A program made the position numbers and the translations under genes. This document shows, in pieces, positions 1 through 17,486 of a DNA stretch of 64,000 bases. The notes below the pieces were generated by a model that was given only the letters and a program-made list of their open reading frames with translations, made no database searches and had not been told where the DNA came from. The stretch's first letter is position 1. Each line of letters begins with the position of its first letter. Source of the stretch: a virus. The stretch spans positions 17,649-81,648 of the IMG/VR virus record IMGVR_UViG_3300020408_000003. One strand, written 5' to 3'.

Positions 1-60
1 TAATTATTATCTAACAACCAATAAACAGTTGATCGCGTCTACCAATTCCGCCACCCCAGA
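1..60 (-). tRNA. Partial atypical tRNA, anticodon GUU (Asn), apparent long variable arm; 3' half outside the window
   Basis: Minus strand reads TCTGGGG-TG-GCG GAATTGGTAGA CGC-G-ATCAA CTGTTTA TTGGT-TGTTAGATAATAATTA. D-arm with GG, 5-bp anticodon stem, 7-nt loop with U33 and GTT at 26..24. No T-loop in the following 16 nt. Confidence 0.75.
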
Positions 61-66
61 ATAATT

Positions 67-957
67 TTATGGTCTAGGATTACCGTATGATTGTGCAAAT
101 CCATGCATTACTCCACTTTTAGGATCAACAAATTCAGTAGTAAAATTTGCATTTACTCTTTTGTGCGCTTTTATCATTCGAGTCACACCAATTCCACCAC
201 CAACTCTTGGAAAAAATTCAAACTTTAAAAATTCATCAAGTTCTTTTTGCACTCTTTCTTTACCAAATAAATCATAAAGTAATTGAGCATACTGTCCATC
301 TGATATAGTTTCAAAAGTATTTCTCATTTGATCTACGTCTGTGCTTCTTTCAGCAGATCCAATTGTTTCCATACCATTTAAAATAACGTCAATCTTTTTA
401 CTTGTTTTGCCGTCTTCATTTCTTGTCATATTCCAAAAAGGTGATGTATGTTCTGGAAATTTAGTAATCATGCCCCAATCAATTTGTTTTTCATGGTAAT
501 TATCAAGTTCATCTGTATTAAATTCTAAACACCATTCTTCATATGTTTTTTCATCTAACTTAGGAAATCCCATATATTCACATAATTCGATTTCTAATTT
601 TTTTAGATCATCAATGTCACCTGGCATTTCAAATTCAAACATTGGAAAGATTGTTTCATGTCTTCCTTGTATTGGATTTGGTTCTTGTCTATAACTTGTT
701 GAAAGACAAAAATAACCTGGTGAATTCGGGCCACCGTGTGCTAGCAATTCGTGTTCTAACCACATTTGCCCAGTTTGGGGTAATGGCCAAACTTCTCCAT
801 CATAATTATAAATTCCTACTGTTTCAGGATCTTCACACGCTGCTAATATACTTAATCTATTTTGTGTATGTACTTCCCACCAACCTTTTTCCAAAAAAAA
901 GGACCGTAAACGGCCCACTGTAAAACTATAATCTTGTGAATTAATCAACTTTGTCAT
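67..957 (-). CDS. Class IIb aminoacyl-tRNA synthetase (Asn/Asp-like) catalytic-domain-only protein
   Basis: LPQTGQMWLE, motif 2 YRQE...RH..IFPMFEFE, ETIGSAER, motif 3 GGGIGVTR. At 296 aa it has no N-terminal OB-fold anticodon-binding domain. Confidence 0.8.
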   Translation of the reverse strand: MTKLINSQDYSFTVGRLRSFFLEKGWWEVHTQNRLSILAACEDPETVGIYNYDGEVWPLPQTGQMWLEHELLAHGGPNSPGYFCLSTSYRQEPNPIQGRHETIFPMFEFEMPGDIDDLKKLEIELCEYMGFPKLDEKTYEEWCLEFNTDELDNYHEKQIDWGMITKFPEHTSPFWNMTRNEDGKTSKKIDVILNGMETIGSAERSTDVDQMRNTFETISDGQYAQLLYDLFGKERVQKELDEFLKFEFFPRVGGGIGVTRMIKAHKRVNANFTTEFVDPKSGVMHGFAQSYGNPRP

Positions 958-978
958 ACTTGCTCCTTTTTTAAATTT

Positions 979-986
979 TATTTATA
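979..986 (-). promoter_or_regulatory. T4-type late promoter TATAAATA upstream of the aaRS-like gene
   Basis: Exact TATAAATA on the minus strand, followed by an AAGGAG SD and ATG at 957. Confidence 0.7.
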
Positions 987-991
987 CCTTA

Positions 992-1669
992 TTATTGTAT
1001 GTTTGGAAATATTTCTGAAATAACTTTAGCACATTCAACAGCAACAAGTCTATGTTCTTTCTGTGTTCCGTTAGCAGATCGTAATTCTATAAAATGAATC
1101 CAAGATCTTAAAGTTCCACTCATGTATAATCTACTTTTTGTTAATCCTTCTGGCAAAACAGCTCGAGCTTGTTCTTTTGCAATGCCATGTTCTACAGCCC
1201 ATTTATAGACTTCTCTACATTGATTTATAACTCCTGTTTGTCGTCTTTGCCATTCTGTAATCAACTCTTGCATTTTTTTATCATTCTGAATACTCGGATC
1301 ATTTTCTATTTCAATACTATTTTGTCTGTTCTTTTCATCTTGCAATCTACATTCACGAGTTGTAAAAGATAAATCGTCAGTAGGATCTGCATATCTTTGA
1401 CTAAACTCTTGAAATGAAAATGATCTGTGTCTGAGTATTTGTCTGGCAATGTCTCGAGTTGTTTCTATCTCCAAGCAAGCGCTAACCATTTCGAAGGGCG
1501 ACCAATGCTTGTTTTTGATAAGATAACGTAAGAGCTTTTCTGACGTTTTTTTGTTGGTTTGGTTCGATGGATTGGAAACACGGGCGCAATACGCAACGAG
1601 ATCTTTGGCATCTTCTACTCCCTCCATTTTCTCAAATGGTTTACTGTAACTTATAAGTTTTACGTTCAT
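992..1669 (-). CDS. thyX: FAD-dependent thymidylate synthase
   Basis: HWSPFE and the ThyX signature RHRSFSFQEFSQRY. Confidence 0.95.
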   Translation of the reverse strand: MNVKLISYSKPFEKMEGVEDAKDLVAYCARVSNPSNQTNKKTSEKLLRYLIKNKHWSPFEMVSACLEIETTRDIARQILRHRSFSFQEFSQRYADPTDDLSFTTRECRLQDEKNRQNSIEIENDPSIQNDKKMQELITEWQRRQTGVINQCREVYKWAVEHGIAKEQARAVLPEGLTKSRLYMSGTLRSWIHFIELRSANGTQKEHRLVAVECAKVISEIFPNIQ

Positions 1670-1914
1670 GTTGTAACTTCCAACTCACTTTTAATTTTTT
1701 CAACAACCTTTTCGTTTACGCATGAAATCATATGCGGTTCATTATCTGGTCCAAATTCCGCAAATAATCTACGCATTATCGGAAACATATTAATTTGAGT
1801 AAATCTAGCACATTGTTCCCATGTATTAAATTTATGCGTATCAAATACGTAAATATCACGTGTACCCTGTTCAACATTAATTACTGACATCATTGCTACT
1901 ATTAAAAATTTCAT
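1666..1914 (-). CDS. Small hypothetical protein, hydrophobic N-terminus, two Cys
   Basis: ORF tightly coupled to its neighbours; contains FNTWEQC and ISCV. Confidence 0.6.
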   Translation of the reverse strand: MKFLIVAMMSVINVEQGTRDIYVFDTHKFNTWEQCARFTQINMFPIMRRLFAEFGPDNEPHMISCVNEKVVEKIKSELEVTT

Positions 1915-2565
1915 TTAACTTTCCTTTATCATTGTCCAAAAACCGGATCCTGTTTCAAAATCATGATGATCAAATTTACGTCTATGTTCTTTTAAAAAAC
2001 CATCAATAGCTCTAACTGTTCCTTGATGACTAGGATGATAATCATCGCCGCATATGTATTTTACATCTTTTAAAGCTCGTAATTCTAAAGTAACATTGAA
2101 GTAACTGTGTAATCCATCAATATAAACTAGATCCCAATTTGTATCTTTTTCTAATATTTCTAAACTTTTCTTTTGATGTATTATGTGTTTCATCATAAAT
2201 CGAGTCGGATGTTGAGACATTACCCAATTAAAAATTTTTCTTTGAGCATTATCGTTTTCTTCAACATACATCTTCATAAGATATTCAATCGTAGAATTTC
2301 CTTTATGTTTTTCAATCACTCCATTATAATGTTTTTGTTTTAAATAAGGTTCATTCATGTCAAAAGTATCACACGTATGAAGTTCAACATCTTTTGGTAA
2401 ATTATTTAATAATATCCAAGTAGAACATCCCCATGCACAACCGATTTCTAAGACTCTTCCACCAGACTTAACATTACGAGCAAATTCACCAAGAGCTTCT
2501 AAATGTTTTGGATTATTAAATCCTGGAATATCTAAATAGTGTTTCACTGGTTTTGGTATAATCAT
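1915..2565 (-). CDS. Class I SAM-dependent methyltransferase (Methyltransf_24-like)
   Basis: VLEIGCAWGCST motif I, DLVYIDGLH, ICGDDY. Confidence 0.85.
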   Translation of the reverse strand: MIIPKPVKHYLDIPGFNNPKHLEALGEFARNVKSGGRVLEIGCAWGCSTWILLNNLPKDVELHTCDTFDMNEPYLKQKHYNGVIEKHKGNSTIEYLMKMYVEENDNAQRKIFNWVMSQHPTRFMMKHIIHQKKSLEILEKDTNWDLVYIDGLHSYFNVTLELRALKDVKYICGDDYHPSHQGTVRAIDGFLKEHRRKFDHHDFETGSGFWTMIKES

Positions 2566-3932
2566 AATTTAAAATCCTCGAACTTTTTACCAGCTGGCGT
2601 TTTATCAAAAACCGGTGTATCATCAGTTAAAGTTTGGTGACTTTCTTCAACATCGTATAATTTCATTTTACTTCTATCTATTCCAATAACGAAACGTCGA
2701 TGTTGCGTAGGATCGTTATAGCGATTTTTTAATTGTTTAACCATCATTTGTCCCATACCATCAAGTTCTTCAGAAGATATCAAAGCAAACATTAGATCTG
2801 CAGTAGCTGGCAAACCAAAGCTTTCTGACGTATCTTCTAAACCGATATCAGAACTTCCAAACCCAGATCGAGTTGTTTGTGTTGCAGAAAATATGGGTAA
2901 ATCAAATTCTACGGCTAAACCGCGTAATTCTTCGGCAATCGCTTTGACATATGAATAAGAATTAATTGCACCGCCTAAACCTTTCATCCTTGAACTAGCA
3001 CATATATTTAAATAATCTATGAAGATAATATCTGGTTTAAATTGTTTTTTTAATTTTAATTCGTTTAACAAAGATCTAAAATGGCCAGAATGAGCAGCAC
3101 CTGTAGGATATTCTTTTATTATAAGTTTACCGTTTGTTTTACGAGATATGTCTTCAACTTTACTAGTAAACATATCTTTAGACATTTTATCTAATTGATC
3201 GATAGGGACATTTAATAAATTAGCATCAATACGCTCTGCTATTCTTTCTTCAGCCATTTCCATTGTAATATATAAAACATTATAACTATCATTTAATGCA
3301 GCAGCCGCTACATGGCACATGAAAAGAGACTTACCAACCCCAGTGCCAGCAAGAGCAATATTAAGAGTTTTATTAGGAACACCTCCCTTAGTGATTTTGT
3401 TAAAATACTCCAGATCGAACGGTATACGACTTTCTTCCTTATGATAAAATTCAAATCTTTCTCCGGCTTGTTCGACATAATCGTGACCTACATTTGTATC
3501 AAACGCCACACCTAATGCATCTTGTAATAAACTAGGTAAAGCGTTTTTCGTTAACTTTTCGTGTTTACCATCTATGATTGAGATGGATTCCATTACGGCA
3601 TTGTATATAGCTCTATCTTGACACCACTTTTCGGTATTTTCTAAAAGCCATTTTTCATCAACTTCGTCACCATCAAACAAGTTTTGAGCAATATCAACAG
3701 CAGTTGAAAATTGTTCGTTACTTAAATTAGAATGTTCGTTTAATTCTACTAAGAACGATTCTCGAGTTGGCAACTTGTTGTATTTATCAACGAACTTACC
3801 AGCTTCCTTAAATAATGTTTTATACGGACCTTCAAAATATTCTGGTTTGATGAAAGGTAAAACCTTTCGCATATAATCGTCATCAGTTAATAATTTTCGA
3901 AGTATCGTCTGTTCTATTCTCGTATTCATCAA
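2562..3932 (-). CDS. 41: Replicative DNA helicase gp41
   Basis: Walker A AGTGVGKS, YITMEM, IFIDYLN, SATQTTR, SESFGLPATAD; T4 synteny. Confidence 0.95.
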   Translation of the reverse strand: MMNTRIEQTILRKLLTDDDYMRKVLPFIKPEYFEGPYKTLFKEAGKFVDKYNKLPTRESFLVELNEHSNLSNEQFSTAVDIAQNLFDGDEVDEKWLLENTEKWCQDRAIYNAVMESISIIDGKHEKLTKNALPSLLQDALGVAFDTNVGHDYVEQAGERFEFYHKEESRIPFDLEYFNKITKGGVPNKTLNIALAGTGVGKSLFMCHVAAAALNDSYNVLYITMEMAEERIAERIDANLLNVPIDQLDKMSKDMFTSKVEDISRKTNGKLIIKEYPTGAAHSGHFRSLLNELKLKKQFKPDIIFIDYLNICASSRMKGLGGAINSYSYVKAIAEELRGLAVEFDLPIFSATQTTRSGFGSSDIGLEDTSESFGLPATADLMFALISSEELDGMGQMMVKQLKNRYNDPTQHRRFVIGIDRSKMKLYDVEESHQTLTDDTPVFDKTPAGKKFEDFKL

Positions 3933-4227
3933 TTCGCTTTTTTTCCTCTAATTTTACCCAACCGTCTTTTTCACCTCGTTCTATAATATCTTCTAATACT
4001 CTTGCAAGGACAAAATGTAAATCTTCATTATCTACCGTTAAATTTAAATCAGGACTTTCTATTATGCTAAAGTCATACGTAAATTGCTTTCTCTTTCCAT
4101 CGAAAGCTACAGTTCCATATTGAACTACAGTTTCAACAAAATCTCCAGTTAATATTCTGATATGCCAGGCATGTGAATCACTAGAACTTGGTATGAGTTC
4201 GTAGTCTTTATTCTCTTGCATCTTCAA
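3883..4227 (-). CDS. Hypothetical protein at the T4 gene 40 position (possible head vertex assembly chaperone)
   Basis: Lies between uvsX and 41 with a similar size; function inferred from position only. Confidence 0.5.
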   Translation of the reverse strand: MKMQENKDYELIPSSSDSHAWHIRILTGDFVETVVQYGTVAFDGKRKQFTYDFSIIESPDLNLTVDNEDLHFVLARVLEDIIERGEKDGWVKLEEKKRIDEYENRTDDTSKIIN

Positions 4228-5233
4228 TATCTATACTCCTATTACCGCCAATTTGATATGCGCTTTTAATATAGTCTTTAAAATCAGTTTTTTCGAAAAT
4301 TGGTTTCCAAAAATCTTCAACTAAAGTAGATTCATGTCTAACTTTATTTTCTTCATTTGCACGTGCGTACCACCCAGGCGAAGGCTTAGTCACATAACCA
4401 CCGGTCATAGCAATATCAAGTAAACCAGAATAAGATAAAACACCGCCTTCCCAAGAAACAGAAATCGGTATCTTAGATTTTTCTTTTACATACCGTGATT
4501 TTTCTACGTTAATAATAAAATGATAACCTTGAATCTCAGTACCTTTTTTATCTTGTTGCCTACCGATAATCCATATATTGTCAGCACTATAGTATATGCC
4601 AGTACCACCAGATACCACGTCTTTTGGAAATAAACCGATTTCTTTGTATGTATGATTTACTGCAATGAGTGGTATGTTTTTCATATTTAAATATGGTGTA
4701 CACATTCTAAATAAACCTTTGAGAGCTTTTGCTCTTGACATATCCGCAACTGATTTTTCATTAATAGCATCTTCTAATTCTTTTTTAGAAGCTAAGTTAC
4801 CAACAGAATCAATCATGATAATAACTCTATCATTACGATCTATACCTTCTAATTGACTTATCATATCGAATTTTAATTCTTCAACGTTTGTAATAGGTGT
4901 ATGTAAAACACGAGAAGTATCAATGTTAAATTGCTGAAAGTAAGATTGAGGTGAACCAAACTCTGAATCATAAAATAACAGTACAGCGTCTTCATACTTT
5001 TTTAAATATGCAGAAGCCATTATCAAACCGAAAGAAGTTTTAAAATGTTTTGATGGTCCTGCTAGTACTGTCAAACCAGGTGCTAATCCGCCTTCTGTTG
5101 TACCAGATAATGCAACGTTCATCATCGGAACGTCTGTTGGTACCATATCTTTTTCTGTAAAAAATTTACTTTCAGATAGAATATTTGTATATTCTACTTT
5201 ACTATTCTTTTTTAATTTATCCATTATCGACAT
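4208..5233 (-). CDS. uvsX: RecA-like recombinase UvsX
   Basis: AGPSKHFKT, YDSEFG, IDSVGNLASKKE, SGGTGIYYSAD. Confidence 0.95.
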   Translation of the reverse strand: MSIMDKLKKNSKVEYTNILSESKFFTEKDMVPTDVPMMNVALSGTTEGGLAPGLTVLAGPSKHFKTSFGLIMASAYLKKYEDAVLLFYDSEFGSPQSYFQQFNIDTSRVLHTPITNVEELKFDMISQLEGIDRNDRVIIMIDSVGNLASKKELEDAINEKSVADMSRAKALKGLFRMCTPYLNMKNIPLIAVNHTYKEIGLFPKDVVSGGTGIYYSADNIWIIGRQQDKKGTEIQGYHFIINVEKSRYVKEKSKIPISVSWEGGVLSYSGLLDIAMTGGYVTKPSPGWYARANEENKVRHESTLVEDFWKPIFEKTDFKDYIKSAYQIGGNRSIDIEDARE

Positions 5234-5242
5234 ATATGTCTC

Positions 5243-6199
5243 CTAATTTTTCTTATAATAACTTTTATACCACTCAACAAAATCACGAATTCCATTTTCT
5301 ATATTCGTCATTGGAACGTAGCCTAATTTTTTAATATTGGTTATATCAGCTAATGTATGACGAATGTCAGCTTTGTGCATATCACTAAATTTTATTTTTG
5401 CCTTACGACCTAAATTTTCTTCAATTAATGATACAAACTTCATGAGCGGTATACTCTCTCCACTTCCAATATTAAATATTTCATGCGTATTAATTCTTTT
5501 CACTTTATCTATGAGTAATTGTACACCATTTACGATATCTTGTACATAGGTAAAATCGCGAGACATTTCTCCATGACCATAAATTTCAATAGGTTGATCT
5601 TCTATGATTTTATCAGTAAATTTGTAAAGAGCCATATCTGGTCGACCATGCGGTCCGTATACAGTAAAGAATCTAAATCCTATTGATGAGGATAAATTGC
5701 TGTGTTTAAATTGACATTCATTAACGTATTTTGACCAAGCATAAGGATTTTTATGATGTTTAAATTCCATACTTTCTGTAAAGGGCGGTGTTTGACCAGC
5801 ATAAACGCTTGAAGACGAAGCATACACAATTGGTATTTGTAATTTTTCTGCTAATTTAATTATGTGCTGTGTTCCAAGTATATTTGTGTTGATATAATTA
5901 TCAGGATTTTCTAATGAATTTCTTACACCAGCATAAGCTGCTAAATGAACTATAACATCAATATCTTCAAAATCTTTTTCATTTAAATCAATTATATCTT
6001 TATTGTGTACATTTATATTAAAGGTTTTTAAAAGATCTGCACGGTTTTCTTTTAGCCACGGATTGTAATACGAATTAAAATTATCGCAACCGGTTACATC
6101 ATTTCCGTATGTTTTTAATTCCCTTGATCCTTTTTCCACAAAATTTGTCGCTAAATGATATCCTATAAACCCAGCGATACCAGTAATATAAATTTTCAT
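5243..6199 (-). CDS. NAD-dependent nucleotide-sugar epimerase (UDP-glucuronate 4-epimerase-like)
   Basis: TGIAGFIG, HLAAYAGVR, YASSSSVY, YxxxK, RFFTVYGPHGRPDMA. Confidence 0.9.
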   Translation of the reverse strand: MKIYITGIAGFIGYHLATNFVEKGSRELKTYGNDVTGCDNFNSYYNPWLKENRADLLKTFNINVHNKDIIDLNEKDFEDIDVIVHLAAYAGVRNSLENPDNYINTNILGTQHIIKLAEKLQIPIVYASSSSVYAGQTPPFTESMEFKHHKNPYAWSKYVNECQFKHSNLSSSIGFRFFTVYGPHGRPDMALYKFTDKIIEDQPIEIYGHGEMSRDFTYVQDIVNGVQLLIDKVKRINTHEIFNIGSGESIPLMKFVSLIEENLGRKAKIKFSDMHKADIRHTLADITNIKKLGYVPMTNIENGIRDFVEWYKSYYKKN

Positions 6200-7002
6200 T
6201 CATAACTCACGTTTTGTTCTTTTTCTCTATCATCTTTTTCATATTGCAATCTATATGTATTGTTTTTCTTGATAACGTATTCTAATATAGGCATACTATT
6301 TGTAAAATTAATCCATGCAGATAAATCTTTTGGAAAGCATGCTCCTCCAAAACCTCGTTTTCCATCAAATCCTGGTACTCTTGTATGAGATTGGCCAATT
6401 CTAGGATCTGTACCAATAGCATTTATAATCTTACCAAAGTTTCCACCGAAATTATCTACTGCATCGTATAATTCATTATACCATAAAACCTTTGTTGCTA
6501 AAAAACAATTGATTCCGTATTTTACAAAAGATGCGTCAGTCAATGACATATGAAACGTAGGACAGGGTTTACATATACTATACTCTTTATAAAATTGTTC
6601 TACCTTTTCTGTTGTTTCTTTTTGACCTCCAAAGACTTGAATTGAAGGATTGATTATATCTTCGTTAGCATTCTTTTCTGTAAGAAATTCTGGATTATAT
6701 ACTATTTTTAAATTATTTAAATTTTTTAAAATATTAGGTGGTATTGTAGATTTTATAACTATAATTCCACATTTAGTATTTTTTAATTTATTTAAAATAT
6801 TTTCTAATATGTATGTATTACAAGTACCGTTTTCACTCATAGGAGTTGGCACACAAACAAACGTTATATCAGAATTTATATCAGAATAATTTTCATCATT
6901 ATTATATTTAGGATCTATAATTTGTTTTTTAACGTCGTATTGAAAAGCATAATCAACTGCTTTACCAACAAATCCGTGACCAATGATCGTGATATTAAGC
7001 AT
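6196..7002 (-). CDS. UDP-glucose/GDP-mannose dehydrogenase family protein (short form without the C-terminal domain)
   Basis: GHGFVG, CVPTP, IKSTIPP, NPEFL, catalytic GFGGACFPKD. Confidence 0.88.
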   Translation of the reverse strand: MLNITIIGHGFVGKAVDYAFQYDVKKQIIDPKYNNDENYSDINSDITFVCVPTPMSENGTCNTYILENILNKLKNTKCGIIVIKSTIPPNILKNLNNLKIVYNPEFLTEKNANEDIINPSIQVFGGQKETTEKVEQFYKEYSICKPCPTFHMSLTDASFVKYGINCFLATKVLWYNELYDAVDNFGGNFGKIINAIGTDPRIGQSHTRVPGFDGKRGFGGACFPKDLSAWINFTNSMPILEYVIKKNNTYRLQYEKDDREKEQNVSYE

Positions 7003-7008
7003 TGCGAA

Positions 7009-8034
7009 TTAAACCATAAATTCATTTAATGGATGATCTATCTTTCTTTGTACACGTATTTCTTTCGGTCTTTTACCGGTATATAATCTTTTAAAACCTC
7101 CTGCATTTTTATATGGACCTGCTCTACAAACATTATCAAGAAATCGAATAAAAATACAAAGAGTATCTTCGTGTTGGGCTGGTGTTGTACCTAATTTTTC
7201 TGATAAAGCTATAAGACCTGTATCTGTAAAATCATCAAGAGCCATTCCCTTTGGTCGTTCAAAACATTCTAGCAATCCATCTCGAGCATTCGATCCACAC
7301 ATCAACATGCTATTTGGATCTACGTTATTCGGATGATAGTGAGCTATATCAGCAGATGCCATCGCAAATGGAAAGTTCCAACGTTTGATTCCTTCTTGTA
7401 AATGATATTCATTTAAAAAATTAGTAGTTGTACGAATTGAACGTGGAGTATTAGCTCTTACAAATTTAGAACATCTTTCAGCTTGATAAACTCCGTCAGT
7501 GCACATATACTCTGCGACGCTTTGACCTTTACGAGGATGCGGAGGAATATTACCTACAGACGTATTCATAGATCTTTTTTGTCTTTTCCACTTTCGAGTA
7601 AGATCAATCATCTCATCTATCGTTTCATATTTTCCGAAATGAGTTACGATGCTATTTCTATATCCGTGATCGTAAGTACCGCTAAATCCACTACCAGTTG
7701 CTCTATGAAATATATAAGTCCATATCCAGGTTTTTAAAGTCCAACTTTCTGTTTTATATTTTAAAATACGCTCTTTAACTTGATCTGGTCTTTTATGAAA
7801 CTGAGGACTTTTTTCTTTGTTTTGCAAATCTTCAAGAACATAATTAAATCCTTCGGTCCAACGAGAAACAGAATTATACACGCCGTTTTGCATTAATGGA
7901 TCATTTACTATTTTATTAGCTTCTTCTCCTAACGGATCGGTTGTGCCTATATGACAATTGTCTTCTAACCATTTTGCTCTTGGCCAGAAATATTCAACAT
8001 ATGTTTTATAATTTTCTCTTTGTACTAAATTCAT
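7009..8034 (-). CDS. Putative amino acid:DNA transferase (aGPT-Pplase1-like) DNA hypermodification enzyme
   Basis: N-terminal DPLMQ...YNSVSR..E and C-terminal EDTLC...RF resemble the DPIL..F.NV.R.D and E..LCE..KY motifs of the family as recalled; located in a modification operon. Confidence 0.55.
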   Translation of the reverse strand: MNLVQRENYKTYVEYFWPRAKWLEDNCHIGTTDPLGEEANKIVNDPLMQNGVYNSVSRWTEGFNYVLEDLQNKEKSPQFHKRPDQVKERILKYKTESWTLKTWIWTYIFHRATGSGFSGTYDHGYRNSIVTHFGKYETIDEMIDLTRKWKRQKRSMNTSVGNIPPHPRKGQSVAEYMCTDGVYQAERCSKFVRANTPRSIRTTTNFLNEYHLQEGIKRWNFPFAMASADIAHYHPNNVDPNSMLMCGSNARDGLLECFERPKGMALDDFTDTGLIALSEKLGTTPAQHEDTLCIFIRFLDNVCRAGPYKNAGGFKRLYTGKRPKEIRVQRKIDHPLNEFMV

Positions 8035-8042
8035 CGTAAATC

Positions 8043-9008
8043 CTATATTGTAAGTGGATTGCTGCCGAAATCGTTTCTACGATAATTGGGTGGAGCGATA
8101 TGTACACTTGATCCTTTTTCCATAAAATTCAATGCGTATTTTTCTGGATCCATATCATACCAAAAACGAGGTGGCATAACAATATTTCCTTTTGATTCGT
8201 CTGTAAGAATACTTATAAAGTCATCAGTAATACGTTTTCTTTCAGATTGAGAACCAAAAAATGGTGTACCTTTGTAATATCCAGTTTTAGGAAGTTTACG
8301 CTTTTCATATTCTACTGGCACGGGTGCAGCAAATTTAGGATCATCAGTACACTCTTTAGCTTGCTTTATGTATTCTTTAATCATTGCTTTTAGATCAACG
8401 TTATTGTGTCGAAGTAAATGATGTCGAATGTCTATGGAACCAAAACAAAATGTAATATTACCTTCTATTGGTTTATCTCGAAATAAATTTTTTAAACCAG
8501 TTTTTAAAGCTCCGTGTAAAGTAGCTCCATCTCTACGGTATATCTTATCTGTTTTATCGCTAAAAGCTAAAGTATGAGAATCGCCTACAGTAATTCCTTT
8601 CATATTAAGATCTTCTTGTTTTAAGATAGGAATATTTTTTAATAAAGCTTCAAGCTTATCGCACCATTGCTCAGTTACTTTATGATACGTACTAGAATTT
8701 CCAATTCTTTTTCTAAAATTATCGGTCCATATCTTTATATCCCATTCGAGTGATACAATCTTTTTACACATAAAGAGAGTATTAATGCGATCGTAAATAT
8801 CTCTATCGATACCACCAAAAAGATTAATTGATCCAGTAAAGTTAACTCCATGATTAATGTATACTATATCTGCATTTTGAATATTTTTTGTGCACGTATG
8901 ATCTATCTTCGCATTTAGTTGATCTGCCCATATTTGAGCATAACCAAGATTATGAGACTTCGGGGCTTTCGGTATATTCGACAGAGGATTGGTAATTACC
9001 AAAGACAT
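8043..9008 (-). CDS. Two-domain protein: T4 beta-glucosyltransferase-like N-terminal domain plus SGNH-like domain
   Basis: SINLFGG...WDIK resembles T4 BGT SINFFGG...TDIR; the C-terminal half has GDSH, G.IDIRHH and SSVH. Start placed at 9008 because of a GGAG SD. Confidence 0.5.
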   Translation of the reverse strand: MSLVITNPLSNIPKAPKSHNLGYAQIWADQLNAKIDHTCTKNIQNADIVYINHGVNFTGSINLFGGIDRDIYDRINTLFMCKKIVSLEWDIKIWTDNFRKRIGNSSTYHKVTEQWCDKLEALLKNIPILKQEDLNMKGITVGDSHTLAFSDKTDKIYRRDGATLHGALKTGLKNLFRDKPIEGNITFCFGSIDIRHHLLRHNNVDLKAMIKEYIKQAKECTDDPKFAAPVPVEYEKRKLPKTGYYKGTPFFGSQSERKRITDDFISILTDESKGNIVMPPRFWYDMDPEKYALNFMEKGSSVHIAPPNYRRNDFGSNPLTI

Positions 9009-9240
9009 ATTCAACTCCTGCTTCATTATATATTTTTTCAGATTCAGACCATCTTCGTGTCCAAATATCGGGATATCTGTACTTAGGCATTATAACACGT
9101 TTTATACCCATTTGTACAATGTTTTTTGTATATTCAGGCGAAGGCGGAAGACCGTAAATATATAAATCTGTGCCAATCATGACTTCGCCTTTATCGGTTT
9201 CTTTGGCTAAATCTATGTATTTCATATTGTATGAACTCAT
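8950..9240 (-). CDS. Degenerate dCMP-deaminase paralogue (no HxE or CxxC)
   Basis: LYIYGLPPSPEYTKNIVQMGIKRV aligns with MYITGLPTCHRCAKAIIQVGIKRV of the 9704 gene. Confidence 0.7.
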   Translation of the reverse strand: MSSYNMKYIDLAKETDKGEVMIGTDLYIYGLPPSPEYTKNIVQMGIKRVIMPKYRYPDIWTRRWSESEKIYNEAGVEYVFGNYQSSVEYTESPEVS

Positions 9241-9707
9241 ACTTTTCTCCCGAGTTTTACATCTAAAAATTTTTTTAGTTCGTCTAACATTTTTTGCTCG
9301 TATATTCTACCAGCTTCACCATTAAAATTGCGATTACGCGGTGAGGGATGATCAATTTTGTAATTATCTATAGCATATTTTTTACACACTCTAGCTACAA
9401 GATGACCAAGCGCTATGATAACTTTTTTTCCTTTTACTGCTTTTTGTAAAGCGGATTCATCAACTTGTTTAATATCTTTACAGTTCATGATATGCGGTAT
9501 TACATTATGAAAATCCCATTCTTCTAAACCAAGTCTAACAGTCCAATCTTCTAATCGAGCAAAAGTTCCGTGTGGCTGTATTTTACCTTCTTTAAATTTT
9601 TTTCTAAAGGTATCAGAATTTCTAGAAGAAGGAGATTCTCCTAATATTAATACATCATTAGACAATTTGTGATTACTTAAAAAATCTAAAACATTTGATA
9701 ATTTCAT
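9237..9707 (-). CDS. Uracil-DNA glycosylase superfamily protein
   Basis: Motif A-like ILGESPS, IIALG, motif B-like HPSPRN. Confidence 0.75.
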   Translation of the reverse strand: MKLSNVLDFLSNHKLSNDVLILGESPSSRNSDTFRKKFKEGKIQPHGTFARLEDWTVRLGLEEWDFHNVIPHIMNCKDIKQVDESALQKAVKGKKVIIALGHLVARVCKKYAIDNYKIDHPSPRNRNFNGEAGRIYEQKMLDELKKFLDVKLGRKV

Positions 9708-10168
9708 TGATCTGGCTCCACTATTTGATAATATATTTTTGCTTCTTTAAATAAACTTTCTGTTAATTTCCAAGAATCAATCCATCTTTCTGGTATTTTT
9801 GCTCTTATAAAAACTCTTTTTATTCCAACTTGTATTATGGCTTTAGCACATCGATGACATGTTGGAAGACCAGTTATATACATTGCGGCTCCTTCTAATG
9901 GTACTCCACTATTCGTAGCATTGTATATAGCATTTTCTTCAGCATGAACTATATAGTCATATTTAAGAATTCGGTTACTATATTTATCAGGACAGTCTTT
10001 TATACCACGAGGAAACCCATTATATCCTTGAGTTAATATTTGTCCTTTTTTACCAACTACTATAGCACCGATCTTTGTCGATGGATCTTTAGACCAAGAC
10101 GAAATCTGATCTGCAATATCTAAATATCTTTTATCCCAATCATTTAACAAGGTGAAAATGCCTTTCAT
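9704..10168 (-). CDS. cd: dCMP deaminase
   Basis: SKDPSTKIGA, GYNGFPRG, HAEENAI, PTCHRC. Confidence 0.92.
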   Translation of the reverse strand: MKGIFTLLNDWDKRYLDIADQISSWSKDPSTKIGAIVVGKKGQILTQGYNGFPRGIKDCPDKYSNRILKYDYIVHAEENAIYNATNSGVPLEGAAMYITGLPTCHRCAKAIIQVGIKRVFIRAKIPERWIDSWKLTESLFKEAKIYYQIVEPDQ

Positions 10169-10835
10169 ATACGTGAAGATTTTGTACTTGCCAAATCATA
10201 TGACCTAATGATATTTTATCACCAGTATCGTATTCTTCAAACTTGCAATCATTCCAATCTTTAACTAATCTATTCATGATTTCAAACTGCCAAGCGTAAT
10301 CATTTTTATAACCAAAGACTACATCATTAGAACGCATTTGAACTACAGCATGTAAGATATTATCTCGTATGTAATACGTAACGCTATTAGTACAAATAAA
10401 ATCGTTTTTACCGTTTTCATTATATTCCATCCAAATTGAAGGGCGATTGTAAACCATACAAGCACGACGGCTATCTGGGTTTCTTATCAGTTCATCTAAT
10501 ACTTGACCGTATTGGTTATGGTATTTATCATTGAAAATTAGATGACCGTAGTTAGAATTAATTTCTCCATGTTTATTTGCTGAATATTCCCAACATTTAG
10601 GTGGATCTTCAAATTCTCTTATGTCATTAATATTAGTCGACTGACTATCATACCATTTTATCTCGCTGTCGATATATTCTTGACTTGGTGTTCCGAATAT
10701 AGATGGTTCATCTGCTATGAATGATGCACCGATTAATTCAATCGTTGACATACCACTTCTATCAATAGTAAATGCTTTATCGTATAATTCATCGATAAAA
10801 TGTTTACGTATGTCGTTTACAGTCATCATTCGCAT
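10140..10835 (-). CDS. 42: dCMP hydroxymethylase (T4 gp42-like thymidylate synthase homologue)
   Basis: DFICTN and MRSNDVVFGYKNDYAWQ closely match T4 gp42. Asp occupies the base-specificity position where ThyA has Asn. A separate thyX is present. Confidence 0.85.
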   Translation of the reverse strand: MRMMTVNDIRKHFIDELYDKAFTIDRSGMSTIELIGASFIADEPSIFGTPSQEYIDSEIKWYDSQSTNINDIREFEDPPKCWEYSANKHGEINSNYGHLIFNDKYHNQYGQVLDELIRNPDSRRACMVYNRPSIWMEYNENGKNDFICTNSVTYYIRDNILHAVVQMRSNDVVFGYKNDYAWQFEIMNRLVKDWNDCKFEEYDTGDKISLGHMIWQVQNLHVYERHFHLVK

Positions 10836-11235
10836 CTTGTACTCTCTTTCTCAAATCTGATGTTGAAAATTTGTGGTCTCTTTTATTAAAGTGTAATTGT
10901 ATACCACGCTTTTTACATTCATCCTTTCCAGTAAAATCTTTATCACGGTATTCTTCACCTAAAATTCTTATATCGATCGGATACATGTTTATTATATCAC
11001 ATAATTCTGTTTCTGTACAATAAATAATTACTTCATCAACGTATTTTATAGCGCATAATTGTGCTTGTCTTTCTACAATAGATTGAACTGGAGGATTTTT
11101 GTTCTCTCTATCAAGAGAAGGATCTACTTGTAAGCCAACTATCAAATGATCACAAACTGATTTTGCTTCACGTAACATCGCTACATGACCAGCATGTAAT
11201 AAATCAAAAGTGCTGCAAGTAAATCCGACTTTCAT
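10804..11235 (-). CDS. Cytidylyltransferase (TagD/glycerol-3-phosphate cytidylyltransferase-like)
   Basis: FDLLHAGH HxGH motif, YVDEVI, RDHKFSTS. Confidence 0.88.
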   Translation of the reverse strand: MKVGFTCSTFDLLHAGHVAMLREAKSVCDHLIVGLQVDPSLDRENKNPPVQSIVERQAQLCAIKYVDEVIIYCTETELCDIINMYPIDIRILGEEYRDKDFTGKDECKKRGIQLHFNKRDHKFSTSDLRKRVQDANDDCKRHT

Positions 11236-11405
11236 TCTACTGCATCTTCAATACAAACAAAACTCGTACCAAGTTCTGCTTCTTCTTTATGCAATATTGC
11301 ATTCTTCCAACATTCATATTCACCAGTATAATAATCAAGTGATTCGCCTTCGACTATTCCTTGAGCGTTAATCACAACAGCGACAAGTATATAACCTAAG
11401 ATCAT
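11232..11405 (-). CDS. Small hypothetical protein (57 aa; not in the ORF track)
   Basis: MILGYILVAVVINAQG...EYECW...FVCIEDAVE; ATGA overlaps with both neighbours. Confidence 0.7.
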   Translation of the reverse strand: MILGYILVAVVINAQGIVEGESLDYYTGEYECWKNAILHKEEAELGTSFVCIEDAVE

Positions 11406-11764
11406 GATTCCTCGTCTGATTTAATTACTTTACTTTTTTTCTTTCGATTTAAAAAATCATGATCTGCGTTTTGACCTTGCATTTTACCGCGACAATATTC
11501 TACGATGAATGAACCGTAGTTAATCATATCTTTTGCAGAATCTTCGATTGATTCGAAGTTAGGATCATAGTCAGGATCGTTTTGCATTGCTTCGATAACT
11601 GATCGCATACGAAGCATTTTAGCATGAATAATATCTAAAAGCGTTGCTACACCTTGTGGATAATAATCTGCTTGTTGTATGCGCGAATTAGGATTTTGAT
11701 AATCATTACCTTTTTTAGCTTGTAGTTCTGCGCATTCTTGTAAAACTTTAATTGATTCTTTCAT
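11402..11764 (-). CDS. Nucleotide-modification-associated helical protein (Nmad1/DUF1599-like)
   Basis: KKGNDY and ESIEDSAKDMINY pattern; first gene of the modification operon. Confidence 0.6.
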   Translation of the reverse strand: MKESIKVLQECAELQAKKGNDYQNPNSRIQQADYYPQGVATLLDIIHAKMLRMRSVIEAMQNDPDYDPNFESIEDSAKDMINYGSFIVEYCRGKMQGQNADHDFLNRKKKSKVIKSDEES

Positions 11765-11781
11765 TATACACCTCCGAATAT

Positions 11782-11810
11782 ATTATACACTATTAAATTT
11801 TTTTTGTACA
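11782..11810 (-). promoter_or_regulatory. sigma70-type early promoter of the DNA-modification operon
   Basis: TGTACA-N17-TATAAT followed by a GGAGG SD. Confidence 0.75.
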
Positions 11811-11816
11811 TAGGTA

Positions 11817-12320
11817 TTAAGCAACTTCTTCTAGAGATGGGGGTGGAGGATAAGGAAAACGCATCTCTCCATCTATATTTTGAAGAAGTTCAAGAGCACG
11901 ATTAGCTTCTACATAACCACAGATTTCGTAGTTAGCTTGTTTATTTGCTTCAAGTGGAGTCCAACGATTTCCATCAGCCCATTTCCAAACAACAATGTAT
12001 TTGACTGTGCCGTCGTTGATGCGGTCTTGTGCATATGGACTTAGCTTAACGCCTTTCTTAGCGAACTGCTTATATTCCATTTCACCAAAATCTTTGTGCA
12101 TAGTATCGTATTGAAAACCCCAATAAACTTCTTGCTTAGAGTCAACTTGACACTGATGATACTCGGGAAACTCTGCTTCCCAACGTCTACGTTCACTCAT
12201 AAGATCGAGATCGCGTTTACCGCTTTGATAACTTTTTTCTGCACGCTCACGTAAACGTTTTAAAATATAATTGTCTGGCGTAGCAGATACAATTTTATTA
12301 ATTTCAATAAATTTATTCAT
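11817..12320 (-). CDS. Hypothetical protein, possible PD-(D/E)XK nuclease
   Basis: E...YD(X8)EYK spacing resembles the PD-(D/E)XK motif; weak. Confidence 0.45.
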   Translation of the reverse strand: MNKFIEINKIVSATPDNYILKRLRERAEKSYQSGKRDLDLMSERRRWEAEFPEYHQCQVDSKQEVYWGFQYDTMHKDFGEMEYKQFAKKGVKLSPYAQDRINDGTVKYIVVWKWADGNRWTPLEANKQANYEICGYVEANRALELLQNIDGEMRFPYPPPPSLEEVA

Positions 12321-12330
12321 AATATGTTTC

Positions 12331-12513
12331 TCACTTAATATTAGATAATACTTTACAAATTTCTTTTACTGTAAAACAGTTAATAATATTGCCTTGTAAT
12401 TCACGATAATTTTTTGGTTTATAATCTTGAATTATATCAATAGCAGTTGTTTTAGCTTCATAAGAAGCTTCGGTGAATTTTACTTTAAATTCTTTTATTA
12501 TTTTATTAATCAT
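12331..12513 (-). CDS. Hypothetical protein
   Basis: ORF in the operon, coupled to the upstream gene. Confidence 0.55.
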   Translation of the reverse strand: MINKIIKEFKVKFTEASYEAKTTAIDIIQDYKPKNYRELQGNIINCFTVKEICKVLSNIK

Positions 12514-12773
12514 TAAACTAACCCTTCTAATACAGTAAAAGCTTTTTCAAATAAATCGTGTACAGCTGAATCATACTCGAAACCAGATTCTACACCAAAA
12601 TCAAAACTTGAAGAAGTTCTAAATGAATCAAAATATCCAAAAGTAATAAAAGCTTTTGCTAATTCTAATGGATCGTTAGATGCACATACAATTCCTGTAC
12701 TATTGTGAAGTTCTAATTTACCTTCACCTGCGCTTAAATAATGTATTTTATCAAATATTGGTGTATCAATCAT
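12513..12773 (-). CDS. Hypothetical early protein
   Basis: AAGGAG SD and an upstream promoter. Confidence 0.65.
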   Translation of the reverse strand: MIDTPIFDKIHYLSAGEGKLELHNSTGIVCASNDPLELAKAFITFGYFDSFRTSSSFDFGVESGFEYDSAVHDLFEKAFTVLEGLV

Positions 12774-12800
12774 AATATAATTTCTCCTTGTTATAATACT

Positions 12801-12829
12801 AATATAATACTTTTTTCAGAAATGTACAC
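12801..12829 (-). promoter_or_regulatory. sigma70-type early promoter
   Basis: GTGTACA-N16-TATATT in an AT-rich intergenic gap. Confidence 0.55.
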
Positions 12830-12887
12830 GGTAAAAACGCATTTTTTTTAAATTAATTGAATTTTTTATGTAATTGTGTCTTTTATG

Positions 12888-13811
12888 TTACACATTACGA
12901 TAGACATATTCTAATGCTCTATCTGCTTCTTTTTTAATCGGACGTTTTTGATACCAATTACCGTTATCGATATCAAACTCACGACATAGATTTGTGATTT
13001 CATCCACGTTTATAGGATATTTAGACTTAATAGCATTACCAGCTATAGCAACCATAATTTGATACATCTTATGATACCAACCAGTTTTAGTAATCGTCTT
13101 ATATTCATTTGCTAATTGCATAGGCCAAAATGGACAATCGCGATAAGAAGACCAAGAAAAATCATTATCAAGTTTATTTTTCTTATATTCTAAAACTTCT
13201 TTCTGCAATGCTTCAGGTAATCTATCGAAAAAACTATTAAGCGTAGCTTTTTCTGGCATAGGATGTTTTGCTATTAAAGCATCGGGATCAAGAACATCAC
13301 CATTGTTACTGAATATAAAATTAAAAGCACGATCATATTTCGCAGGGATATAATACATTCTCGATAAGTCTTTAGTTTGCTTATCGCCAAGTTCACCGAG
13401 TTCGGATTGGAGTGCAAACCAGAATTTTCTAATTCTATCGTTCGGGACATTGTTTCTAACTGGGAACACGAGTCGGAACTTTGGAGCATTAGTCTTAGAG
13501 CTTGCAGTACTATAACACACAAAACGCAAATGACTAAAGCGAGTAAGTAGCTCATCTTTTAAATCTCCTTTAAATTCAAAATCATCAACATCAACACAAC
13601 ACCATTGAGACCATTCGATAACGTTATCGTTTGCTCGTGTAGTATCTTTTTTATACACAGCAGGAGATATTAGAACAGCGTCTTTCTTTGATTTAAGTTT
13701 TCTTTTAGATAAATCATATAATAATTTTTCGAAAGAATCAAAATCTTGATGTTCTAATATCTTATCAGTTTTGTTATCGAATATATTTTTAAATATTGTG
13801 TATTTAATCAT
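12888..13811 (-). CDS. Archaeo-eukaryotic primase/primase-polymerase-like protein
   Basis: hhhDhD motif (CCVDVDD), YSTAS...PKFRLVFP, D.SRMYYIP. Confidence 0.7.
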   Translation of the reverse strand: MIKYTIFKNIFDNKTDKILEHQDFDSFEKLLYDLSKRKLKSKKDAVLISPAVYKKDTTRANDNVIEWSQWCCVDVDDFEFKGDLKDELLTRFSHLRFVCYSTASSKTNAPKFRLVFPVRNNVPNDRIRKFWFALQSELGELGDKQTKDLSRMYYIPAKYDRAFNFIFSNNGDVLDPDALIAKHPMPEKATLNSFFDRLPEALQKEVLEYKKNKLDNDFSWSSYRDCPFWPMQLANEYKTITKTGWYHKMYQIMVAIAGNAIKSKYPINVDEITNLCREFDIDNGNWYQKRPIKKEADRALEYVYRNV

Positions 13812-14242
13812 TATCTTTTCTTAATACCATCATTTATATTTCCATGATTCTTCTTATGGCTAGGACCTTTCCATCCATCTGGTTTAATTAAATCAGGTAA
13901 TCCTAAAGGATTTGGTCTTGACGGTTTAACACCGGGTTCTTTTGACATATTAGCTTTATGTACGCTATTCCACGCTTTATACGCATCAACGCCAAAAGCA
14001 TCTAAAGTACCGATGGCAACAACGCAAAGATCGATTAATCCATCAACTATCTCTTCAGGATTTTTATCTGTAAAAGCAGCTTTACGTGTTTCATCTAGTT
14101 CTTCTTTTAAAAAGTTAAGACGAAATTCTAAAAACTTTTCAAGCTTATGCAATTCGCCTTTATCTTTTGTTTTTTTAAACCAATCATGTACACCAAACTT
14201 AGCATGCATGTTATTAATATCTTTTACCCAATTTTTTGTCAT
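13811..14242 (-). CDS. MazG-like NTP pyrophosphohydrolase
   Basis: EELDE...EEIVDGLID acidic motifs, VHKANMSK, KPDGW. Confidence 0.8.
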   Translation of the reverse strand: MTKNWVKDINNMHAKFGVHDWFKKTKDKGELHKLEKFLEFRLNFLKEELDETRKAAFTDKNPEEIVDGLIDLCVVAIGTLDAFGVDAYKAWNSVHKANMSKEPGVKPSRPNPLGLPDLIKPDGWKGPSHKKNHGNINDGIKKR

Positions 14243-14247
14243 ATTAT

Positions 14248-14276
14248 ATTATACTCCATTTTTTATCATTTGTAAA
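14248..14276 (-). promoter_or_regulatory. sigma70-type promoter, probably leaderless
   Basis: TTTACA-N17-TATAAT with ATG 5 nt downstream. Confidence 0.7.
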
Positions 14277-14279
14277 TGC

Positions 14280-16769: not shown

Positions 16770-16775
16770 AATATA

Positions 16776-16804
16776 ATTATATCACAAATATAAATTTTTG
16801 TAAA
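16776..16804 (-). promoter_or_regulatory. sigma70-type promoter of gene 43, probably leaderless
   Basis: TTTACA-N17-TATAAT, ATG 6 nt downstream, no SD. Confidence 0.72.
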
Positions 16805-16812
16805 CTGTTTTT

Positions 16813-17283
16813 TTACATAAGTTCAAAATGTGGACCATCAATAAAAGGACGTCTTCCCTCACTTCTTCTTAAATCTATATAAGCGTTCATAGCATCTTCT
16901 GCTGTACCTGGATATGATCTAATATCTCCTTCAGACCATGCAGCACCCCATTTTATCGCCACGCCTTTTTCTTCGGCTGCTTGTTTAAATGCATCACATA
17001 TATCATCATAAACATTTATTTCCCAAATGACGTCTGATCCGTCATAAGCTACTACATCTACGGCATGCGAATAACCGCTGCCATCTTGAAGTAAATGTTT
17101 TGAATTCATAGTCTGAGATCTACCAGATTCGTATAATTTTTTCTGTTCTTCTAAAGTTCTAACTCCATAAGTGACGCCAAAGTCAACTTTAGTTATTTCT
17201 ATTGCTCTTTCAACTACCGCGACCATATCTGGATGGACGCCTTCTAATTTTCCTCGACTTCTCGACGATAAACTAAATGCCAT
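16813..17283 (-). CDS. Peptidase M15 (L-Ala-D-Glu peptidase) endolysin
   Basis: RTLEEQ, SKHL, HAVD, WG..W, DGPHFEL. Confidence 0.88.
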   Translation of the reverse strand: MAFSLSSRSRGKLEGVHPDMVAVVERAIEITKVDFGVTYGVRTLEEQKKLYESGRSQTMNSKHLLQDGSGYSHAVDVVAYDGSDVIWEINVYDDICDAFKQAAEEKGVAIKWGAAWSEGDIRSYPGTAEDAMNAYIDLRRSEGRRPFIDGPHFELM

Positions 17284-17304
17284 ATTTCATCTCCTGTTAA
17301 ATTT

Positions 17305-17330
17305 AAAGGGACGAGTTTCCCCGTCCCTTT
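17305..17330 (-). terminator. Stem-loop (probable terminator) upstream of the endolysin gene
   Basis: AAAGGGACG / CGTCCCTTT inverted repeat. Confidence 0.7.
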
Positions 17331-17338
17331 TATTTATA
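17331..17338 (-). promoter_or_regulatory. Late promoter TATAAATA for the endolysin
   Basis: Exact consensus directly abutting the hairpin. Confidence 0.7.
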
Positions 17339-17486
17339 TCCATCCTTTTAGATTAGGATTGATAAGTTGTTTTTGTCTTCTTTCTAGTTCAACTAAGTCG
17401 TGCGAACTAGCAAGCCATTCTTCTCTAAGTTCTTGTTGAGATTTAGGCCTTAAGTTCCAAATATATTTTAATATTGATTGAATCAT
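17334..17486 (-). CDS. Small protein (50 aa, DUF3563-like; not in the ORF track)
   Basis: MIQSILKYIW...EEWLASSHDLVELERRQKQL; ATGA overlap with the upstream ORF. Confidence 0.6.
   Translation of the reverse strand: MIQSILKYIWNLRPKSQQELREEWLASSHDLVELERRQKQLINPNLKGWI

Follow-up and report, generated by a model that had tools for sequence, protein, structure and literature searches.

A candidate kinase-independent system for cytosine hypermodification in marine T4-like phages: an aGPT-Pplase-fold protein paired with an SGNH-fold partner

All of the aGPT-Pplase and amino acid:DNA transferase (AADT) chemistry characterised so far acts on 5-hydroxymethyluracil (5-hmU) that has been activated by a kinase, according to the available text of Lee et al. 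(PMC8989533). A conserved cysteine and a neighbouring glutamate are essential in two of these enzymes, M6 gp51 and ViI gp247, and the same text proposes that the cysteine adds at C6, that phosphate is lost and that a nucleophile then captures the exocyclic methylene. The nearest published idea to the one developed here is that of Burke et al. 2021 (PMC8256090), whose accessible portion describes P-loop kinase and aG/PT-PPlase genes in TET-bearing metavirome contigs and suggests an analogous role on 5-hydroxymethylcytosine (5-hmC). The subject of the present work is a 64,000-nucleotide stretch of viral DNA (the window), bases 17649–81648 of the 81,648-base IMG/VR virus record IMGVR_UViG_3300020408_000003, which is rated about 40% complete. 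At positions 7009–8034 it carries P0001, a gene resembling the AADTs, with a second gene, P0002, immediately upstream. The clades of the aGPT-Pplase superfamily, to which P0001 is compared below, were reportedly named by Iyer et al. in 2013.

On balance, P0001 and P0002 appear to make up a kinase-independent two-component system that modifies 5-hmC in replicated phage DNA. P0001 is a real gene under purifying selection. Its open reading frame (ORF) runs from ATG to stop exactly over the interval given, on the minus strand, and a Shine-Dalgarno-like AGGA lies 8 nt ahead of the ATG, overlapping the stop codon of the upstream gene. The ratio of nonsynonymous to synonymous substitution rates is 0.06–0.14 when the gene is compared with four metagenome contigs holding 84–93% identical copies. 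Among 1.84 billion representative proteins, relatives fall into 93 clusters at E ≤ 1e-3 and 65 at E ≤ 1e-10, and IMG/VR holds at least 587 tblastn-confirmed relatives among the 600 pattern matches listed. P0001 has no match in Pfam (even at E ≤ 10), PHROG, NCBIfam or PDB, the latter by both phmmer and profile search, nor any tblastn match among 50,697 phage records; a homologue from the marine clade likewise has no tblastn match in the phage collection.

The kinship of P0001 is seen in its predicted structure. An AlphaFold2 model built from 66 relatives is all-helical, with a mean predicted local distance difference test (pLDDT) score of 88.7. When searched against BFVD with Foldseek, its best match, from an uncultured phage, was named "Amino acid:DNA transferase domain-containing protein" (E 1.8e-14, template-modelling (TM) score over the query 0.80, 25% identity). 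Nine of the top 13 matches bear the names AADT, Pplase1 or 5-hmdU-DNA-kinase-helical and the other four are unnamed; those named include proteins of SP10, PhiW-14 and phiRSL1, with the HMUDK-helical type at ranks 7, 10, 11 and 13. PDB structures gave weak matches only, the best being the helix-hairpin-helix (HhH) glycosylases MjOgg, AGOG and TAG (E 0.1–1, TM 0.3). The model thus has the all-alpha, HhH DNA-glycosylase-like fold of the aGPT-Pplase superfamily.

The second resemblance is a Glu-x3-Cys motif. All 150 relatives keep E289 and all but one of them (149 of 150) keep C293, and the identical spacing occurs in 4/4 AADT and 5/5 HMUDK reference sequences, taken from genes located by Pfam models in Vi01, M6, PaMx11, PhiW-14 and SP10. 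P0001 therefore possesses the conserved cysteine with a nearby glutamate, their equivalence to the AADT residues being by motif alone; in an hhalign alignment, E289 and C293 pair with the Glu and Cys of the HMUDK set. The same program, run with the P0001 family against the five kinase helical domains, returned E 0.0047 with a broader alignment (A1) and 0.21 with another (A4). From model and motif, P0001 can be called AADT-like by its fold and motif, though not by sequence profile, and is best described as a predicted new clade of the aGPT-Pplase superfamily. An earlier sequence-only reading had taken the gene for a divergent AADT-like transferase. Fold and motif agree with that view, since structural similarity of the AADT/HhH type was found. 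The profile checks with PF18724 (AADT) and PF18723 (HMUDK_hel) were negative, neither model reaching its cut-off, which bears out the word divergent.

That reading, which saw no visible kinase partner for P0001, was incomplete in that it overlooked P0002. P0002 takes the place occupied by the kinase in hmU systems and is a conserved, elsewhere fused, partner of P0001. In a survey of 80 related IMG/VR loci, P0002 was detected in 64, and in all 16 misses the contig ended no more than 1.6 kb from P0001 (13 at 1.1 kb upstream, three within 1.6 kb downstream). Where at least 3 kb of sequence flanks P0001 on both sides, P0002 is nearby in 42 of 42 loci. Among the relatives of P0001, six measure 640–790 aa, and each of the four tested begins with a part resembling P0002 (E 1e-20 to 6e-39). 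The fused form is also found in Aeromonas phage 44RR2.8t, where the N-terminal half of the 795-aa ORF233c matches the P0002 family (hhalign E 9e-47) and residues 679–762 give a weak PF18723 match of 16.3 bits, against a cut-off of 25. P0002 itself matches only two PHROGs of unknown function, phrog_13881 and phrog_17781; one of these is a 795-position profile, of which P0002 spans the first 333 positions. The P0002 family comprises 570 clusters at 90% identity, mostly marine.

The predicted model of P0002 (pLDDT 88.8) offers a clue to its role. Foldseek matched its C-terminal half to the PDB entries 3mil, 3skv, 3p94 and 1z8h with probability 1.0 and E-values of 1.5e-4 and weaker. All 26 sequences compared share G148-D149-S150-H151 and S307-x-H309, which supply the block I serine and block V histidine of an SGNH fold, and R164, R201, H203, R243 and R263 are invariant as well. 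Two of eight long relatives scanned gave weak Lipase_GDSL matches (E 0.02 and 0.066). A PDB profile search with P0002 found nothing, and the ESM Atlas had no usable match for the N-terminal domain; for the whole protein it returned only unnamed viral clusters and one weak GDSL-bearing cluster. Prediction of a complex between P0002 and P0001 scored 0.01, which tells neither for nor against their association. The ESM Atlas record of P0002 begins at residue 7, so that the true start is probably M7 (position 9008); a 96-aa minus-strand ORF at 8950–9240, 89% conserved in the closest relative, overlaps the annotated start by 77 nt. In 44RR2.8t, the gene directly preceding the fused ORF233c (6013–8400) is a sodium:solute symporter gene (4420–5943), annotated as similar to a sodium/glucose cotransporter.

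The carrier of these genes is a marine T4-like phage that makes its DNA with hydroxymethylcytosine. Its thymidylate synthase (TS) homologue shares 48–52% identity with gp42 from T2 and further T-even-type phages, the alignment covering 98% of the protein; with the homologue from RB69, a phage that the accessible part of a 2025 preprint links to a TS homologue making 5-hydroxycytosine, identity falls to about 26%. The Pfam TS match is weak (47.6 bits). Aligned with T2 gp42 and the true TS of phage 44RR, the protein retains the catalytic cysteine, and both it and T2 gp42 have aspartate in the column where TS has asparagine. This column (Asp179 of T4 gp42) is the one that sets the preference for dCMP or dUMP. 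Orthology, catalytic cysteine and aspartate all place the protein among the T4 gp42-type dCMP hydroxymethylases; the 5-hmU-derived substrate base of AADT systems, with its dUMP-type hydroxymethylase, has no counterpart here. A gp42-like gene is present in 40 of the 42 well-flanked loci, the two exceptions both belonging to one genome with an Asp-type TS homologue elsewhere, and an Asp-type TS homologue occurs in all five related genomes examined. A T4-style set of pyrimidine genes is rounded off by the dCMP deaminase, ThyX and a MazG-type pyrophosphohydrolase, the last a putative dCTPase that would prevent unmodified dCTP from entering the DNA. To our knowledge, the known elaborations of gp42-derived hmC are glycosylations.

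A kinase for the hydroxymethyl group was sought widely. PF18723, the 5-hmU DNA kinase model, has no match in the whole 81.6-kb record, about 40% complete, including the part that lies beyond the window, nor in four related viral records, one of them with terminal repeats and one rated 84% complete. The fifth related genome, 44RR2.8t, shows it only below threshold and inside the fused ORF. PF18724 has no match in any of the five related genomes. As a positive control, five known hmU phages were scanned, and PF18723 was found in 5/5 and PF18724 in 4/5. A Pfam scan of 35 ORFs in the window and 10 in the 17.7 kb upstream of it detected no P-loop nucleotide or DNA kinase and no glycosyltransferase. 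Neither the upstream 5-hmU DNA kinase that supplies 5-phosphomethyldeoxyuridine (5-PmdU) to AADTs nor a PF18723 domain fused to a P-loop kinase was found, then, in a record of this completeness. Because the context is that of a dCMP hydroxymethylase and no 5-hmU kinase was detected, hmC is the best reading of the acceptor. On these points the sequence-only reading fared well: its cytosine context and its lack of a recognisable 5-hmU DNA kinase are upheld, and its suggestion of hmC as acceptor is favoured. It was right about the type of the hydroxymethylase and wrong to make it the neighbour of P0001, as the gp42-like gene lies 2.1 kb upstream and P0002 comes between.

In most relatives the pair is joined by a third gene. 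A gene for a protein of about 295 aa, resembling pyridoxal phosphate (PLP) enzymes, lies between or near P0002 and P0001 in 62 of the 64 loci that hold both. Four of five members scanned gave sub-threshold matches to PALP (PF00291; E 1.7e-5 to 1.3e-3), and a lysine within a G-S-K-V-R-G-G block is invariant; no PDB sequence match was found, even by profile search. By tblastn and profile, this gene is absent from the window and from the whole record of an incomplete genome, and it is absent from all four close relatives too, which makes the absence a lineage trait rather than an accident of assembly, incomplete as the genome is. The window and these four relatives share one gene order: cytidylyltransferase-like gene, gp42, dCMP deaminase, P0002, P0001, short dehydrogenase, epimerase and UvsX. 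In the tree, the window lineage is the long-branch sister of a marine clade that carries the PLP-like gene, and P0001 is the most diverged gene between the lineages, with a median identity of 35% vs 51–80% for neighbouring genes. Eleven positions conserved in at least 85% of 143 other sequences are changed in 7/7 members of the window lineage, including D54N, Q163I and D294I, the last directly after the cysteine. Loss of the PLP-like gene and change at these 11 positions suggest that the window lineage attaches a different group; with purifying selection still at work, the remodelling probably reflects a switch in the group handled.

The PLP-like protein has relatives in other settings as well. 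It is 31–34% identical, over 77% of its length, to part of gp1 of Erythrobacter phage vB_EliS_R6L, and the same similarity is seen in Erythrobacter phage ZS04 and Microcystis phage Mae-JY30. All three matches lie in large proteins annotated as DNA modification methylases, so the PLP-like domain also occurs fused to a DNA methyltransferase. Some relatives have extra genes between P0002 and P0001. One locus (L032, 8657–9802) encodes a serine hydroxymethyltransferase (PF00464, E 2e-150) and another (L016, 9402–10004) a class II aldolase (PF00596, E 4e-25), with which ORFs of L028 and L041 cluster by BLASTP; in L041, the aldolase-type ORF occupies the usual position of the PLP-like gene.

A sequence of steps can be proposed for the two proteins. 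P0001 would bind DNA and flip out 5-hmC by means of its glycosylase-like fold. Cys293 would then add to C6, and Glu289 would help the group on the C5-methylene carbon to depart, much as has been proposed for M6 gp51 and ViI gp247, leaving an exocyclic methylene that could be captured by a nucleophile. P0002 would substitute for the kinase. Its Ser150/His309 site might O-acylate the hydroxymethyl group and so provide an ester leaving group, or alternatively it might load or trim an acyl or aminoacyl group on the product. Where the PLP-enzyme-like gene is present, as in most relatives, its product probably makes or tailors a substituent derived from an amino acid, while the window lineage would probably attach some other group. 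Put together, it is possible, and is offered here tentatively, that T4-like phages of the sea, represented by at least 587 viral contigs, and those of Aeromonas produce a hypermodified cytosine not yet described, with no need of a DNA kinase. An SGNH-fold enzyme would activate or acylate 5-hmC, and a new aGPT-Pplase clade would swap in a group by Cys/Glu covalent catalysis, amino-acid-derived where the PLP gene is present and of another kind in the window lineage.

Several findings weigh against this account. P0001 itself has no match to PF18724 or PF18723 at E ≤ 10; PF18724 is matched by one of 66 relatives (E 0.00099), and none of 44 further sequences matches either model at E ≤ 0.1 (P0001 is row 1 in both sets). 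With hhalign, the family scored E 0.27–0.38 against the four AADT sequences, no better than unrelated controls (0.46–0.73). The E-x3-C motif, being also present in kinase-linked helical domains, supports membership of the superfamily and not transferase chemistry specifically. On the side of P0002, block III reads G196-S-I198-D199, without the canonical asparagine of G-x-N-D, and no Pfam GDSL model matches at E ≤ 10, so that acyl transfer is argued from the fold. Finally, the record is about 40% complete, and the rest of the genome could encode a kinase, a PLP enzyme or a glycosyltransferase.

The main rival to the transferase reading makes P0001 a DNA-binding, base-flipping module and nothing else, with the SGNH domain of P0002 doing all the chemistry and the product an O-acylated or esterified 5-hmC formed without nucleophilic substitution. 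The sole marginal sequence-profile signal of P0001 is indeed to the kinase-linked helical domain rather than to AADT, its family is fused to a catalytic partner just as that domain is fused to a P-loop kinase, and all five kinase helical domains have E-x3-C. This alternative is nonetheless rather unlikely: the nearest structural neighbours are named as AADT-domain proteins, the strict conservation of E289 and C293 exceeds what a pure targeting module would need, and the PLP-enzyme gene in 62/64 relatives suggests a multi-step pathway as in ViI and M6. Less likely still is a role for P0001 in repair, in the degradation of host DNA or in anti-restriction, whether as a DNA glycosylase or lyase or as an hmC-binding protein without catalytic activity. 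HhH glycosylases do have this fold, and MjOgg, AGOG and TAG are the best PDB matches; these matches are weak, however, those to aGPT-Pplase proteins are far stronger, and the tight linkage to gp42, an SGNH-fold enzyme and a PLP-enzyme gene fits a biosynthetic pathway, which leaves this explanation very improbable.

Two other rivals keep the transferase reading and alter its substrate or donor. Were the substrate 5-hmU, the dCMP deaminase would turn some hm-dCMP into hm-dUMP; once built into the DNA, this would undergo modification of the ViI and M6 kind. A dCMP deaminase gene does lie between gp42 and P0002, and the characterised aGPT-Pplase enzymes all act on hmU derivatives, as stated in the available text of PMC8989533. 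The chance of this is slight indeed, given that no 5-hmU DNA kinase is seen in the record or the five related genomes, against 5/5 known hmU phages, that ThyX is there for ordinary dTMP synthesis, and that dCMP deaminase is common in T4-like phages and not specifically linked to the pair, its position varying among the 49/80 loci that have it. The donor, for its part, might be a sugar or a sugar-derived group, placed on hmC in the lineage lacking the PALP-like gene by way of the flanking cytidylyltransferase-like, short UDP-glucose-dehydrogenase-like and SDR (short-chain dehydrogenase/reductase) epimerase genes. The dehydrogenase and epimerase directly follow P0001 (gaps of 6 and −4 nt) in the window and in 4/4 close relatives, the cytidylyltransferase-like gene abuts gp42, and it is this lineage that lost the PLP gene and remodelled 11 conserved positions. 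Against a sugar stand the lack of a glycosyltransferase among the ORFs scanned, the varying positions of these genes in the 16–22 of 80 loci that have them, and their occurrence in PLP-bearing relatives (L034, L039 and L046 among them), so that they are no replacement for the PLP gene; moreover, going by the available text of PMC8989533, use of a sugar donor is not known for any aGPT-Pplase member. A sugar donor is thus improbable, and while the sequence-only reading chose the acceptor well, its sugar donor has found no direct support. The preferred reading is still that of a cytosine-directed P0001 working with P0002.

The features of the locus are collected in Table 1.

Table 1. Genes of the P0001 locus and associated pyrimidine and nucleotide-sugar genes (positions in the window)
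Feature	Position	Strand	Remarks
P0001	7009..8034	(-)	341 aa; aGPT-Pplase/AADT-superfamily fold (predicted); Glu289-x3-Cys293; basic disordered tail 312-341
P0002	8043..9026	(-)	327 aa; N-terminal alpha/beta domain (~residues 1-135) and SGNH/GDSL-fold domain (predicted)
gp42-type dCMP hydroxymethylase orthologue	10140..10835	(-)	gp42 identity; source of 5-hm-dCMP
dCMP deaminase (T4 cd-like)	9704..10168	(-)	PF00383, E 2.3e-20; in 49/80 loci
MazG/PRA-PH-type NTP pyrophosphohydrolase	13811..14242	(-)	PF01503, E 4.8e-10; in 44/80 loci
Short UDP-glucose/GDP-mannose dehydrogenase-like protein	6196..7002	(-)	268 aa; begins 6 nt past P0001 end
NAD-dependent SDR epimerase/dehydratase	5243..6199	(-)	Best NCBIfam ADP-glyceromanno-heptose 6-epimerase, below cut-off; in 16/80 loci
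Cytidylyl/adenylyl-transferase-like protein (RfaE domain II, TagD similarity)	10804..11235	(-)	In 20/80 loci

The nucleotide-sugar genes do follow P0001 immediately, as first noticed from the sequence. The short dehydrogenase retains GxGxxG and the cysteine motif GGxCxxKD, and it aligns to about residues 49–317 of solved enzymes of 390–480 aa, which leaves it without the C-terminal nucleotide-sugar-binding domain. It stands directly after P0001 in 4/4 close relatives and is found in 22 of the 80 distant loci; the linkage of the sugar genes in relatives is loose. Two small minus-strand ORFs lie among the pyrimidine genes. One, of 156 aa (9237–9707, between the dCMP deaminase and P0002), has a weak uracil-DNA-glycosylase superfamily match (PF03167, E 0.0028, below cut-off) and no PDB sequence match, and occurs in only 7/80 related loci. 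The other, of 120 aa (11402–11764), adjoins gp42, weakly matches DUF1599 ("nucleotide modification associated domain 1", E 0.007) and is kept in 41/80 related loci, mostly just upstream of gp42.

The wider setting is that of a T4-like myovirus replication module, with a family-B DNA polymerase, a gp41-like helicase, UvsX, gp44/45/46/47-like proteins and UvsW. Every gene in the first 64 kb is on the minus strand and the G+C content is about 32%; the polymerase shares 54% identity with its counterpart in "Phage C48C1" and about 47% with cyanomyovirus polymerases. At 67–957 (minus strand), a 296-aa protein, kept at 81% in the closest relative, matches the catalytic domain of class II (D/K/N) aminoacyl-tRNA synthetases and the unnamed phrog_29758; an AsnA-like or amino-acid ligase is one possible identity. 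Between the gp41-like helicase and ThyX (1915–2565, minus strand) lies a Methyltransf_24-domain protein with a weak PHROG "DNA methyltransferase" match and no homologue detected in the 80 related loci. Amid the replication genes, also on the minus strand, are a gene of the IMPDH/GMP-reductase family (21046–22176) and one for a 2-oxoglutarate-Fe(II) oxygenase (22782–23402). Bases 1–17700 of the record, directly upstream of the window, hold three radical-SAM genes (6355–7839, 8894–10225 and 11496–12641), one with a B12-binding domain and one with a SPASM domain, as well as a DUF6267 gene, a DUF932 gene and a gene for a Bmp/PnrA-type substrate-binding protein.

If the proposed activity is real, the widespread set of gp42, SGNH-fold and aGPT-Pplase-fold proteins, usually with a PLP-like enzyme, would extend hypermodification of the thymidine type to cytosine. 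It would point to a novel means by which a hydroxymethyl-pyrimidine in DNA is activated, and abundant ocean phages would be expected to contain a new DNA base. Cultured carriers of the fused form are Aeromonas phage 44RR2.8t and related phages, among them Aeromonas phage 31, which likewise combines the fused ORF with an Asp-type TS homologue. Such bases bear on phage resistance to restriction and CRISPR, on sequencing artefacts in viromes and on enzyme tools for 5-hmC labelling. The literature search found no SGNH enzyme reported with hydroxymethylcytosine in phage, no paper joining pelagimyophage with a hydroxymethylase and, the supplementary figures of PMC8989533 and PMC8256090 aside, no account of an SGNH-linked, gp42-linked form of aGPT-Pplase.

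How the locus compares with described systems can now be summarised. Like the AADTs of clade 2 (PF18724; M6 gp51, ViI gp247 and PaMx11 gp46), P0001 has a predicted all-alpha HhH-glycosylase-like fold and the E-x3-C spacing, and it is a single-domain protein of roughly the same size (about 300–400 aa) belonging to a phage base-modification cluster with a TS homologue at its start. As with the ViI and M6 enzymes described in the available text of PMC8989533, a PLP-enzyme gene accompanies most of its relatives, although compared with the ViI and M6 clusters that gene resembles the PALP fold type (PF00291, below cut-off). Unlike AADTs, P0001 lacks a PF18724 match and a 5-hmU DNA kinase, and it is found with a dCMP-type hydroxymethylase and an SGNH-fold partner.

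With the helical domain of the 5-hmdU kinases (clade 1, PF18723; M6 gp54, SP10 and PhiW-14), P0001 shares the superfamily fold, the E-x3-C motif, a marginal profile signal and fusion to a catalytic partner in some members; its fused partner is an alpha/beta plus SGNH protein and not a P-loop kinase. P0002, in turn, resembles SGNH/GDSL enzymes such as the isoamyl-acetate esterase 3mil and the acyltransferase SsfX3 (3skv) in its C-terminal fold, its GDS(H) serine block and its C-terminal histidine, and differs from them in lacking a Pfam GDSL match and the block III asparagine, in having an extra N-terminal alpha/beta domain and in its many invariant arginines and histidines. The TET-linked clusters, as far as the accessible portion of PMC8256090 describes them, likewise place a gene of the aGPT-Pplase type in a 5-hmC context, with cytosine hypermodification proposed. 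Those clusters combine a C5-methyltransferase and TET, which form 5hmC after replication, with a P-loop kinase, whereas at the present locus hmC would be made by gp42 before replication, no kinase was found, and an SGNH-fold protein stands in the kinase's place.

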